DNA of 41,597 bases from IMG/VR virus record IMGVR_UViG_3300037313_000280, positions 1 to 41,597 of that record; one strand, 5' to 3'. Each line of letters opens with the position of its first letter. Position 1 is the first letter of the stretch. Below the pieces are notes generated by a model. It saw only the letters and a list, made by a program, of their open reading frames with translations. It did not search any database and was not told where the DNA came from. This stretch comes from a virus. Lineage: Duplodnaviria; Caudoviricetes. A program made the translations under genes and the position numbers. Positions 19,795-24,250 of this stretch are shown in pieces.

Positions 19795-21006
19795 ATGCCC
19801 GGCGTACTGCTCGAGTCCTGGAATCTCGTCCGGGTATACGGAACATGGGTAACCCCCGACGGCGCGACGATGCTGTCGGGGACCTACACGATCACCATCC
19901 CTGGCCGGCTCACTAACAGCACGGATGACCGGATCATCCCGGCAGGCACGTTCGCCTCAGGTCAGCTCAACACGACCCCTGGCAGCGGAGCGTCCCTGGA
20001 CATCATGGTCCCTGCCACGGACGACCCGGACATCGAGCAGGACGACTGGAAGCTCGTCATCACGGTCAAGTTCTCCGGTGCGGCACAGGAGATATACGAG
20101 ATCGATGTTCCGGTCGCGAACCGTCCGTCCGCTGACGGCGGTAACGGGGCTGGCGTCAACCTTCGGCAGATCGCCCTCTCGGCTCAGATCACGCCACAGA
20201 TTGCCCTGTACGGCGTCGGAGTGCCTGGCGGCCTTGCGCGGCTGTCGACGGATGGCCTGGCGGTCCTGAATGCCAATGGCGACCCGATCACCGGCACAGG
20301 GGGCACTGGCGGCAGTTCGACGTGGCCGGTCGCCGGGACGCCTTCACCGCTGGCCGGGCTGAGTTCGACCGCGAACGCCACCAATGTGCGGGACGCGATC
20401 CAGGCTGCTGCCGCGACGGACCTGACGGCGCTGTCAACGACGGTCGCTGCCAAGGCCGACTCGACGACCGTCAACACTGCGCTCGCTTCCAAGGCTGACG
20501 TCACGACGGTGAACTCGCTGACGGCTACCGTCTCAACCAAGGCCGATGCGTCCTCCGTCGTCCCGAACTCGCGGACCGTCAACGGTAAAGCTCTTTCGGC
20601 CAACATCACTCTGTCGGCGGGCGATGTCTCGGCCGTGCCGACGACGCGCACTGTGGCCGGCAAGGCGCTCTCGGGCGACGTGACCCTGGTTGCCTCGGAC
20701 GTGGGCGCGGTCGCCACCACGGGCGCCGAGACCATCGCGGGGGTCAAGACCTTCTCGAGCACCCCGGTCCTGCCGGCGGCGAACCCAACGACCTCCACTC
20801 AGGCGGCACACAAGGGCTACGTCGACTCCAAGACGAATCCGACGCTGCCGTGGATCTATGACACGACCGCAGCCGCGTGGCCGACGCTGCCGGGCACCGC
20901 GCCGACTGGTGTCATCCTCGTCGAAGCGATCGGCCCAGTTGCTCCCACCTCGGCGCAGGTCCCGAACTGGCCCGGCGTCACCTTCATGTACCGGGCGACC
21001 GTCTGA
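19795..21006 (+). CDS. fibre-like protein with BppU-like N-terminal beta domain and tail-fibre repeats
   Basis: ATDDPDI...W motif; three KAD repeats; VP.(S/T)RTV.GKALS..(I/V)TL.A.DV.A twice; ETIAGVKTFSS.P and A.KGYVD. Confidence 0.8.
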   Translation: MPGVLLESWNLVRVYGTWVTPDGATMLSGTYTITIPGRLTNSTDDRIIPAGTFASGQLNTTPGSGASLDIMVPATDDPDIEQDDWKLVITVKFSGAAQEIYEIDVPVANRPSADGGNGAGVNLRQIALSAQITPQIALYGVGVPGGLARLSTDGLAVLNANGDPITGTGGTGGSSTWPVAGTPSPLAGLSSTANATNVRDAIQAAAATDLTALSTTVAAKADSTTVNTALASKADVTTVNSLTATVSTKADASSVVPNSRTVNGKALSANITLSAGDVSAVPTTRTVAGKALSGDVTLVASDVGAVATTGAETIAGVKTFSSTPVLPAANPTTSTQAAHKGYVDSKTNPTLPWIYDTTAAAWPTLPGTAPTGVILVEAIGPVAPTSAQVPNWPGVTFMYRATV

Positions 21007-22439
21007 TGGCCGGCCCGATTCCTGGCATTCCGTACATGTGGAGTCGCACGGACCAGAAGTGGAAGGCCCCCGGCCGCCCGTCGCTCGGGACCGACCCAAC
21101 CCCCACGCCGTCGACCGCGGACTGGTCTACGACGAACCTGCCGTGGGCGTACAGCTCGACCAGCGACTTCACGACCCGCTGGCCTGCCGGCGTCAACATC
21201 GTGCCCCTGCAGACCGGCACCGGCGACTTCTACACCGACCTGCAGAACACGGTGAACGCTGCTGGCGCCAGGTGTGTCGTGCAGCTGCCCGCCGGCGTCT
21301 TCACCTTCAACCAGTTCCGGCTGATCGGCTCCTCGGGCGACCCGCTGTACGCGTTCGGGTTCTGGCACTCGAACCTGCAGGGCCTCCTCGGCGCCGGTGC
21401 GGACAAGACCTTCGTTCGGTTCGCCCCGAACAGCATGAGTTCGGCCCAGGTAACGGCGATCCAGAACCGGACCACTACCGACGGCCCGATCCAGCTCGGC
21501 TTCATGCGCCTGGACTCCACTGTGTCGACGAGCCCGATCCTGCTGTCGGGGATCACCTTCCAGGGCAGCGACCAGAACATCATCAGCTCCTCGACCTCGC
21601 CCTACGGCATGGTCACCCCGCAGCCGGCCCCGTGGCAGGGGATCACGTTCTTCTCGGACAACAAGGGCGTCATCGTCTCGCACTGCCGCTTCCAGGCGGT
21701 CGGCCGAGTCTCCACCGCGGCGCCGCCGTTCGAGACCGGACACTTCACCTCCCAGCGCGGCAACGTGAAGGTCTACAACACCGAGTTCGACGGGCGCCTC
21801 GCCCCGGAGATCAACAGCGCGCAGCCTCGTCGCGCCGGCGCGGTGATGTTCAACAACGAAACCGTCGGTCTCCTGCAGGACGTATGGCTGCACCACTCCG
21901 CCAACTCGCGGTACGCCGTCAACGACCAGAACACAGCCACCACCGGCGTCTACACGCTGACCCGCTGCAAGCTCGAGCAGATCAGCAACGTCAACAACAC
22001 CGACCCGGTCTACGGGGCTCTCGGCGGCTGGACGGGTGAGCTGGCGTGCGCCGGCTTCGAGTCGACGAACGCGACGATCAACGTCACCGACTGCATCTTC
22101 TCCCAGGACAACCCGTTCACCACCGGCGGGCCGCCGCACCACTTCGAGCTCACCACGATCACGCGTGATCCGCAGGGCGGTCGGCTCTTCATCGTCGGCG
22201 GCCAGTACCGCGACACCACGAAGCCGGCCGTCAACGGGTTCACGGTCATCCGGGTGCCCACGAACACCTACTGGTCGCGCGACGGGTTCGCCACGACCAT
22301 CGACGTCCGCGACACCGCGGGCGGGCCGCGCAAGACCGCCTATGTGGTCAGCACCGCCCAGTACAACGCGCTGACCGCCTCGAGCCTCGCCGCTGCTGGC
22401 ATCACTCCGGCCACCCACTACATCGTCCGTAACTCCTAA
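21006..22439 (+). CDS. putative beta-helix (pectate-lyase-like) depolymerase / tailspike
   Basis: LQNTVNAAG...VVQLPAGVF, LLGAGADKT and LSGITFQG are typical of beta-helix N-termini. Confidence 0.7.
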   Translation: MAGPIPGIPYMWSRTDQKWKAPGRPSLGTDPTPTPSTADWSTTNLPWAYSSTSDFTTRWPAGVNIVPLQTGTGDFYTDLQNTVNAAGARCVVQLPAGVFTFNQFRLIGSSGDPLYAFGFWHSNLQGLLGAGADKTFVRFAPNSMSSAQVTAIQNRTTTDGPIQLGFMRLDSTVSTSPILLSGITFQGSDQNIISSSTSPYGMVTPQPAPWQGITFFSDNKGVIVSHCRFQAVGRVSTAAPPFETGHFTSQRGNVKVYNTEFDGRLAPEINSAQPRRAGAVMFNNETVGLLQDVWLHHSANSRYAVNDQNTATTGVYTLTRCKLEQISNVNNTDPVYGALGGWTGELACAGFESTNATINVTDCIFSQDNPFTTGGPPHHFELTTITRDPQGGRLFIVGGQYRDTTKPAVNGFTVIRVPTNTYWSRDGFATTIDVRDTAGGPRKTAYVVSTAQYNALTASSLAAAGITPATHYIVRNS

Positions 22440-22448
22440 GGAGCCGCA

Positions 22449-23753
22449 GTGACTACCGAGAACCTCACATTCGAGGACGTCAGCAACGGCGTCGCGGTCA
22501 CCTCGCCGTACAACAACTGGGGCATCACCGGCACCGCGCTCGGCGACACCACCCAGTTCAAGCAGGGCTCGAAGTCGGTCAAGTTCGCCTCGGGCTCGAC
22601 CGTCGCCCAGTTCGCGCGCGGCGTCACGGCGGCGACCGGGCGCATCCGGGTCGCGATCCGGTGGCCCTCGAGCATCACCGCGAACGTCTTCCTGGTGCAG
22701 ATCCAGCCCACGAGCGGAACCCGCGCGGTGCGGCTGTATGGCACGACAGCGAACAAGCTGGTCATCACCGACAACTCCTCGTCGAGCGGCAACCTGTGGA
22801 CGTCGACGACGACGTTCACGGCCGGCAACTGGTACTACCTGAACCTGTGGATCGCTGCCGGCACCACCGGCGCCGACGGGCAGATCCAGGCCACCGTAGA
22901 CACCGGCACGATCACCAGTCCGACCGACAACTCCGGTCTGCTGACGGGGAAGGACTGCGGCGCGGCCGGCACCATCTCGTCGTTCGCGTTCGGCCGAATG
23001 AACGGCACCTCGATCGGCGACGTCTGGTTCGACGACGTCACGATCGAGTACCCGTCGACCGGAGTAATGCCGCCGGCCAACGTCCCCCCGTCGGTCGGCA
23101 TCACCCCGAACCAGAACGTCGCCGCTGGCTCCACCGTTAACGCCTCGGTGACCGCCACAGACTCCGACGGCACGATCGCGTCCTACGCGTGGACGGTGTC
23201 CTACACCTCGGGCACGACGCCGACCCTGACTGGCGCATCGACAGCCAACATCTCCTTCACCGCGCCCGCGGCCGGCACGCTCGTCAAGCTGCAATGCGTG
23301 GTCACCGACAACTCCGGCGGCGCCACCACGGCGACCACGGAGGTCCGGGTGCCGACAACCGGCTCCGGCATCCGGCTCCTGGCGAACAGTGCGACTGGCG
23401 GAACCGGCTGGACGAACCAGGGTGGCGCGGCGAACGAGGCCGCGGCGATGTCGGACTCCAGCGACACCACCTACGTCGAGTCTCCGACGTTCGCAGCGAC
23501 GGCGGACGAGCGCCGCTGGCGGATCTCGCCACTACTCGCAGGGTCGGCGATGTCGCTGACGATCCGCACGTCGCTGAGTGCGGTCGGCGGCGTCACCAAG
23601 GCGCGTCTCTACGAGGGCAACACGCTGCAGCAGGAGTGGACGATCACCCAGGGCACCTCGCCCACGAACCAGACGCTCACACTCGACTCGGCCACGATCT
23701 CGGCCATCACTGACTGGGGCAACCTCTGGTTCGCCGAGTCGGTCTCGACCTGA
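22449..23753 (+). CDS. multi-domain protein: ConA/LamG-like, PKD/Ig, C-terminal jelly-roll
   Basis: TFED...GSKS...GNWY...VWFDDV; N.PP.V...ATDSDGTIASYAW...SFTAP...VTDNSG; AAGGAG RBS. Confidence 0.8.
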   Translation: MTTENLTFEDVSNGVAVTSPYNNWGITGTALGDTTQFKQGSKSVKFASGSTVAQFARGVTAATGRIRVAIRWPSSITANVFLVQIQPTSGTRAVRLYGTTANKLVITDNSSSSGNLWTSTTTFTAGNWYYLNLWIAAGTTGADGQIQATVDTGTITSPTDNSGLLTGKDCGAAGTISSFAFGRMNGTSIGDVWFDDVTIEYPSTGVMPPANVPPSVGITPNQNVAAGSTVNASVTATDSDGTIASYAWTVSYTSGTTPTLTGASTANISFTAPAAGTLVKLQCVVTDNSGGATTATTEVRVPTTGSGIRLLANSATGGTGWTNQGGAANEAAAMSDSSDTTYVESPTFAATADERRWRISPLLAGSAMSLTIRTSLSAVGGVTKARLYEGNTLQQEWTITQGTSPTNQTLTLDSATISAITDWGNLWFAESVST

Positions 23754-23767
23754 TCAGAGGATGACCG

Positions 23768-24250
23768 ATGGCGACCCTGCGCACCTACGACGTCTCTGTC
23801 ACCCACGTCCTGCCGAAGCTCCGCACCTACGACGTCTCGGTCGCGCACACCGCCGCGGCGGGGCTCGGCCCGCTGCGGACGTTCTCCGTCAGCGTCACCC
23901 ACACCGCGATCCCGGTGCTGGTCGACCTGCCCGACCAGACCGACGTCGAGCCGGCCGCGCAGATCCAGTTCACCGCGGTCTCGGCCGACGGCGGCGCGCT
24001 CGACTCAGCGACCTGGACGCAGACCGCTGGACCAACGGCCACCCTCGCTCCGTCGGGGCTCTCGTGCATCGTCACGGCGCCCTATCTGATGCCGGGAGCG
24101 GCCTCGTCCATCGTCATCAGCGTGGTCGGGCATCGCGGGACGGCCAACTCGCTGCCGGTCACGGCCACGATCACGGTCCTGCCGCAGCTTAGTTGGGCGT
24201 GGGATCCTGTCGGACTCGCCTGGAAGGGCGGCCTGTCATACGAGCTCTGA
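23768..24250 (+). CDS. PKD-like protein with three N-terminal LRT(Y/F)xVSVxH repeats
   Basis: Repeats read directly; DQTDVEP...WTQTAGP...TAP is PKD-like. Confidence 0.8.
   Translation: MATLRTYDVSVTHVLPKLRTYDVSVAHTAAAGLGPLRTFSVSVTHTAIPVLVDLPDQTDVEPAAQIQFTAVSADGGALDSATWTQTAGPTATLAPSGLSCIVTAPYLMPGAASSIVISVVGHRGTANSLPVTATITVLPQLSWAWDPVGLAWKGGLSYEL
23777..23902 (+). repeat. three degenerate 30-bp coding repeats
   Basis: 23777-23806, 23819-23848 and 23873-23902 encode LRTYDVSVTH, LRTYDVSVAH and LRTFSVSVTH. Confidence 0.9.

Follow-up and report, generated by a model that had tools for sequence, protein, structure and literature searches.

We have found in a phage genome a pair of neighbouring genes, P0001 and P0002, whose products are probably held together by a donor-strand joint: each strand-like plug at the start of P0002 would complete one socket at the end of P0001, with up to three lectin-like arms on each anchor. 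The socket is a jelly-roll domain which is one strand short, and the neighbour gene has 2–4 look-alike strands in the different loci; therefore the adaptor P0002 likely clips several arms onto the particle. Insertion of the strand and an occupancy of 3:1 are predictions.

The window is the whole stretch of DNA which we have analysed, a complete virus record of 41,597 bases with a genome of siphophage type. Genes for terminase, portal, capsid, tail tube, tape measure, amidase and integrase are recognized in it with Pfam and PHROG. Downstream of the lysis genes there is a block formed by the gene at 19795, which is fibre-like by its PHROG tail fibre matches, the gene at 21006, whose positional counterparts in relatives have beta-helix matches, and P0001 and P0002 as the last two (Table 1). 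Relatives of the locus sit in contigs of Leifsonia, Microbacterium and Cellulomonas, which makes an actinobacterium the likely host of this phage. When single sequences were searched against viral contigs and annotated phages, no relatives appeared, and a cultured phage is therefore not available.

Table 1 Features of the P0001 and P0002 genes in the window
Feature	Position	Strand	Details or basis
P0001	22449-23753	+	434 aa; ends ...ITDWGNLWFAESVST
P0001 N-terminal ConA/LamG-like beta-sandwich, likely sugar-binding cargo	22449..23063	+	AF2 model, Foldseek
P0001 PKD spacer, residues 220-301	23106..23351	+	PF22352 K319L-like PKD
P0001 C-terminal galactose-binding-type jelly-roll without last strand (socket), residues 302-434	23352..23753	+	homologues, fold alignment
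Shine-Dalgarno-like AGAGGA, six bases upstream of the adaptor ATG	23756..23761	+	sequence
P0002 (adaptor)	23768-24250	+	160 aa
Putative donor strand 1, LRTYDVSVTH, residues 4-13	23777..23806	+	sequence, shuffle test
Putative donor strand 2, LRTYDVSVAH, residues 18-27	23819..23848	+	sequence, shuffle test
Putative donor strand 3, LRTFSVSVTH, residues 36-45	23873..23902	+	sequence, shuffle test
Adaptor PKD-like spacer	23915..24184	+	homologues match PF22352 below cut-off, E 0.007-0.08
Adaptor C-terminal Trp-hairpin-like motif, putative anchor	24188..24223	+	kept at adaptor ends

The two genes are translated separately. They are 14 nt apart and their reading frames differ; the frame of the downstream gene has a TGA at 23762-23764. 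The frame difference and the TGA had been pointed out in the preliminary description and are directly visible in the sequence. The abrupt end which it assigned to P0001 is also confirmed by the translation. Third-position GC is 0.92 in P0001 and 0.91 in P0002, versus 0.56 in the competing frame. It is hardly credible that read-through or a frameshift makes one protein of both, or that an assembly error has cut a single gene in two, even if the reading frames are in phase in 5 of 17 pairs and forms with the strand in cis exist. In the window both frames have stops and P0002 possesses a ribosome site of its own, which speaks against the read-through or late frameshift fusion that had been declared excluded. 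The gaps between the genes of the pairs are spread over the three phases (6, 6, 5) and therefore speak against recoding. The C-terminal end is at most 4 residues away from the same point in 151 of the 155 socket proteins which were scored; the other four comprise two which extend 19–20 residues and two with long, different tails. Furthermore another gene intervenes between the partners in two loci (L005 and L055). Given the distribution of the gaps and the common early end we have rejected both recoding and assembly error.

P0002 had been described as starting with three spaced copies of an alternating beta-strand of 10 residues. The copies are real: their triple-repeat score is 17, while the maximum obtained by shuffling is 12 (0/300 shuffles reach the observed value). 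The alternation is not strict, as the hydrophobic residues occupy positions 1, 3, 6 and 8, with hydrophobic fractions of 0.87, 0.81, 0.96 and 0.90 at these positions in the strands of the adaptors. To judge by their sequence, this is the bulged pattern of the last strand of a jelly-roll. A plain self-repeat score misses the diverged adaptors and picks a wrong frame in the window.

In P0001 the best Foldseek matches of the N-terminal domain are sandwiches of the alginate lyase and lectin type (E 5e-8), a fold which suggests that it binds sugars. Among 155 family members 130 have this sandwich, and in others it is replaced. In P0001 the sandwich has a bulged last strand of its own, VWFDDVTI, with the same 1-3-6-8 pattern as the repeats of P0002. 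The PKD domain that follows passes the curated cut-off of PF22352 (34.8 bits vs 27).

The C-terminal domain of P0001 is indeed a jelly-roll of the galactose-binding type, as had been proposed. Its whole model aligns with the beta-sandwich topology of CBM jelly-rolls (VIA: 8hhv, Z 9.3; 4bj0, Z 9.2, rmsd 2.8, 116 aligned; 2zew, Z 8.9), and a further comparison was in agreement. Foldseek alone gave nothing with E under 0.001 for the socket, sequence searches of the PDB gave no solved relative of it, and Pfam had no consistent match among the sequences of 15 sockets and 8 in-cis forms. With 1490 clusters at 50% identity in a profile search the socket family is large, yet neither the socket nor the adaptor has a family in Pfam or PHROG. 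Toxin and viral chains which appear among the fold matches were discarded; they only share common sandwich folds. The fold also matches unnamed proteins of 310–420 aa in phages of Proteobacteria (TM about 0.6 in a search of viral models), such as Achromobacter AchV4, Serratia JS26 and Cronobacter JC01, some of them with several paralogues.

In a jelly-roll of this kind the last strand would lie inside the sheet, not at its edge. The alignment of the socket model with the CBM22 entries 4xuo (Z 7.6) and 1h6x (Z 7.4) ends at 141, and their terminal strands, YLLDEFQI and FYIDEAI, are found at 146–153, past the end of the alignment if entry and sequence numbering coincide. Both strands share the 1-3-6-8 hydrophobic pattern of the repeats. 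Prediction of the domain alone had been suggested as a check. The AlphaFold model is confident without any partner (pLDDT 83.9, with seven strands of at least 6 residues), which counts against the donor-strand joint. Such a confident model would also be found if the domain with seven strands were complete by itself and the repeats either folded together, as a three-strand sheet or the stalk of an oligomer, or were bound to another protein of the virion. We consider this alternative to be distinctly unlikely, for reasons which are given below with the distribution of the repeats.

Homologues with the strand fused in cis, which the preliminary description recommended to look for, do exist. In 14 distinct loci, detected by scans with DNA patterns and profiles, the domain goes on, by way of a loop rich in Gly, to a further strand; the proteins P0147 and P0153 extend in the same way. 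The added strands are of the types GVVSWAEL, VEISWAEL, ARVSWARL, CQVDTVTF, LRVSWITL, GQVSWARL, GYVTQAYL, GRVSYALF, VYASWAEL and FEVAEIYL. The profile of the sockets aligns with the in-cis profile over columns 9–134 of 156 (probability 98.7). These homologues, which are longer by just one strand, and the structural alignment, which stops before the last strand of CBM22, agree with the claim that the jelly-roll of P0001 is devoid of its last strand. One case counts against the donor-strand joint: P0134 has an internal socket without strand in the middle of a protein of 1014 aa, and no strand comes after it. In P0078 the end of the socket runs directly into a donor-like stretch followed by sequence of low sense, perhaps a frameshifted record.

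We have also compared the repeats with the in-cis strands. An earlier donor matrix was seeded from cis strands and was excluded as circular; when it was built without the cis seed, 7 of 8 cis strands had ranks 8–14 among 413–651 windows and one had rank 2. For 5 of 17 copies a donor-only matrix ranks the in-cis tail among the best 5%, with a cis-only matrix 4 of 16 next genes pass, and a leave-one-out test is passed by 14 of 16. It failed in L010 and L013, with Gly/Ser-rich repeats (33 and 183 of 500). A trend across the trans loci towards the cis forms is not significant (rho 0.31, p 0.19), and the matrix of 8 residues is too noisy for genome scans. The profile of the adaptor family of the window has no match with the in-cis tails (probability 0.2), which is a point in favour of a socket domain complete by itself. 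The repeat strand of the separate chain appears to have the pattern of the missing strand, with a likeness which is weak in the subfamily of the window.

A gene with 2–4 copies of the strand adjoins the socket, or is found one gene further on, in 19 of 23 distinct truncated loci, 17 of them reached through the socket and 2 through the adaptor. A single script found repeats within the next two genes in 17 of the 23 truncated loci and in 0 of the 8 readable in-cis loci; the Fisher p value of 3.8e-4 is too small, because the pattern was drawn from donors, the adaptor had led to two of the loci and the cis/trans labels cluster on the tree. Direct reading revealed repeats in two further truncated loci. 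The remaining 6 of the 14 in-cis loci have no readable next gene. Duplicates were left out of the tally (L004, L012, L015, L016, L020, L022-L024, L026, L029, L037, L038 and L048), as well as L028 (stops inside and no socket match), L047 and L049 (no socket match) and L032, a record of 7 kb which is uninformative for absence.

Two loci deserve attention, since they branch among the in-cis forms in the tree and their sockets stop early. In L055 the neighbour has the strands VRIGWAEL, VRISWAEL and LRISWAEF, spaced by 78 and 98 residues; in L050 the strands are LRLGYAEF, ARLSYAEL, MRLSYATL and LRLSHASF. These trans strands (VRISWAEL; ARLSYAEL) are near-copies of in-cis strands such as VEISWAEL, ARVSWARL and GRVSYALF. 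Both loci are the independent contrast in this comparison. Over 27 loci the similarity of the strands, located by hand-chosen patterns, follows that of the sockets (Mantel rho 0.41, 0/5000), a correlation which reflects common descent and not binding. The set used for the tree and the Mantel test includes 8 in-cis loci with whole domains; the socket of L014 is miscut in it (30% filled).

Five loci were reached through the body of the adaptor. Three of them have strands and an upstream socket, and the other two (L033 and L032) have neither. In L033 a lectin-like domain is fused directly to the PKD and Trp motif of the adaptor, there are no strands, and no socket was found in its record, which is 80% complete. 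Repeats are thus not found beside the in-cis forms, nor where the socket is absent, and the strands of L055 copy the in-cis strand; all this is against a socket complete by itself, as are copy numbers of 2–4 and spacings of up to 98 residues, unlike those of one folded unit. The idea that the repeats are the trans source of the strand has gained comparative support from their co-occurrence with truncated sockets, from the near-identity found in L055 and L050 and from the joint absence of strands and socket in the fused L033. All these comparisons support the reading of the repeats as probable donor strands.

The four truncated sockets with no donor gene nearby (L008, L009, L040 and L054) count against the donor-strand joint and favour a complete seven-strand domain. 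Three of them, at about 406,600-418,700 of G001:C2 (L008), 399,800-404,200 of G002:C2 (L009) and 4,064,800-4,079,000 of G1160:C1 (L040), directly follow a very large gene in bacterial contigs. This gene has tape-measure matches in L008 and L009 and an unknown PHROG in L040. Integrases bound about 12–14 kb in the donor-less loci of G001 and G1160. No PF05065 capsid gene is found in G001 or G002, and in G1160 the only one lies 2.5 Mb away. These three loci are either prophage remnants or satellites which would plug their own lectin arm into the adaptor of a helper phage. In L054 (1659-2117) a stand-alone truncated socket is followed by a short tail of YEG type, repeated three times, where the last strand would be expected; a donor gene was not found in the approximately 60 kb of its record.

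If donor-strand binding is real, it may still be that one plug, or fewer than all of them, is used at a time, the repeats being redundant or serving to speed up capture, with a complex of about 1:1. We find this unlikely. It would agree with the distance of only 4 residues between the first and the second strand of the window, with the divergence of copy 3 and with a likeness among repeats of 0.50 within a protein vs 0.27 between proteins (some registers are misplaced), as recent tandem duplication would give. On the other hand 2–4 copies are kept in 19 loci and in 21 aligned adaptors, where an Arg is nearly invariant in all three repeat positions, although three is not a fixed number. The spacing from start to start is never below 13 residues across adaptors, which might leave room for sockets stacked along an extended chain. 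Copy number and spacing fit independent plugs.

L005 also speaks against the use of a single plug, as it retains two types of plug, both in two copies. A second lectin-like gene (1185-2096) is inserted there; the FN3-like domain at its end is cut after the Tyr strand (strand F). The adaptor of L005 (2100-2648) has two new repeats DSxIGYxTVxL followed by two usual ones. It is possibly a second, orthogonal plug-and-socket pair. The FN3 assignment should be taken as a lead only (Atlas 0.87, E 0.19, no Pfam match); a search for an intact homologue of this domain gave only E values of 0.6–9.

P0002 itself has no Pfam match, and its PKD-like domain stays below the PF22352 cut-off; this spacer is missing from the adaptors of L011, L027, L036, L039 and L050. 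A hairpin-like motif Trp/Tyr-x-x-x-Gly-x-Trp closes the adaptors and opens the neighbour genes of beta-helix type, in the window at 21006-21070. It is also found at L002:3505, L010:2002 and L011:6399 and at the adaptor ends of L027, L036, L039 and L050. In L011 the strands, the Trp motif and the beta-helix are all in one protein. Its place at adaptor ends, its recurrence at the start of beta-helix-like genes, the L011 fusion and the analogy with Jabs ORF56-ORF57 discussed below suggest that this motif may be an anchor. The fibre-like gene upstream of the beta-helix-like genes has a conserved domain of 60 residues at its end, which together with the Trp motif might form a docking pair at the fibre tip. 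Single extra donor-like strands are found outside the adaptor gene or further along a fused adaptor (L002:3505-4995, L010:6053-6607 and L030:5001-6407), the one in L030 before a GH16-like domain; they suggest further attachment points.

The donor-strand joint would then work as follows. P0001 would be an arm, with a lectin-like head, a PKD spacer and a socket; judged from its model we read the C-terminal jelly-roll as a putative connector here. P0002 would be a scaffold with three plugs, a PKD-like spacer and the Trp motif as an anchor to the fibre tip. Each repeat would slot into the gap left by the missing terminal strand and so join tightly two proteins which are made separately, and one adaptor could hold up to three arms on the fibre apparatus. 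Fold and gene position suggest that the assembly is on the virion and takes part in attachment to the host surface. If true, this would account for the way in which phages whose hosts have thick walls multiply and exchange their sugar-binding arms with no fusion of genes. The same domain would exist in two states, whole and split, its freed strand duplicated into a scaffold. A plug of 10 residues and a socket of 130, with natural variants which perhaps do not cross-react, make a multivalent protein connector which can be tested.

A wider picture is doubtful: a widespread and modular plug-and-socket display of phages, in which a jelly-roll gave away its last strand and this strand multiplied into scaffolds with 2–4 plugs. 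Orthogonal jelly-roll and FN3 plugs would share a scaffold and cargo would be swapped freely. Small integrated elements without capsid, which encode nothing but a socket arm and a protein of tape-measure type, would add their lectin to the scaffold of a helper phage and redirect its host range.

Some known systems should be compared. In chaperone-usher pili (Fim/Pap) an acceptor without its last strand receives it from the N-terminal stretch of another chain; the fold is Ig-like, each subunit is both donor and acceptor in a linear polymer, and a chaperone and an usher are needed. P0001 has in common with them an acceptor devoid of its terminal strand. However its acceptor is a jelly-roll of CBM type, not Ig-like, and donor and acceptor are different proteins: P0001 has no repeat and P0002 has no socket. 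With a multivalent donor the product would be a branch point instead of a filament. Cellulosome scaffoldins also gather carbohydrate-active arms on repeated docking units; cohesin and dockerin are two folded domains, whereas here completion of a fold by a strand of 10 residues is predicted, and we claim no homology. The literature on donor-strand or fold complementation in phage tails which we covered, mostly outside subscription journals, has no matching description, and the sections of PMC13232314 considered contain nothing bearing on donor strands.

Among phages, the DUF7941 fibre proteins of Goslar, which serve in host recognition, have a predicted assembly of a peptide of one chain with a globular domain of another and carry sugar-binding cargo (10.64898/2026.04.21.720040). 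They differ in that the members of one family, reported to occur only in chimalliviruses, join head to tail into filaments, and the sections of that work considered here describe no jelly-roll with a missing strand. The mycobacteriophage Jabs, an actinobacterial siphophage, offers an analogy for the Trp-motif anchor: in its ORF56-ORF57 pair a CBM-like protein docks on the tip of a trimeric rod through intermolecular beta-sheets (10.64898/2026.07.24.740622). It differs in having one CBM protein per rod, with no tandem donor strands described in the sections considered.

A close likeness is found in the Lactococcus phage Tuc2009, whose adhesion device retains an accessory carbohydrate-binding protein through completion of a sheet: the C-terminal hairpin of BppU completes one sheet of the C-terminal beta-sandwich (domain 2) of BppA (PMC4742702). 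Fold completion as a way to fix a phage CBM protein is therefore already known. According to the sections of that paper considered, Tuc2009 uses one C-terminal hairpin of two strands per BppU chain and a titin/Ig-like acceptor. In the loci described here we find instead single N-terminal strands, 2–4 per chain, an acceptor jelly-roll of CBM type and intact homologues with the strand in cis. What appears to be new is the multivalent, scaffold-like donor of single strands and the presence, side by side, of whole and split forms of the same domain.
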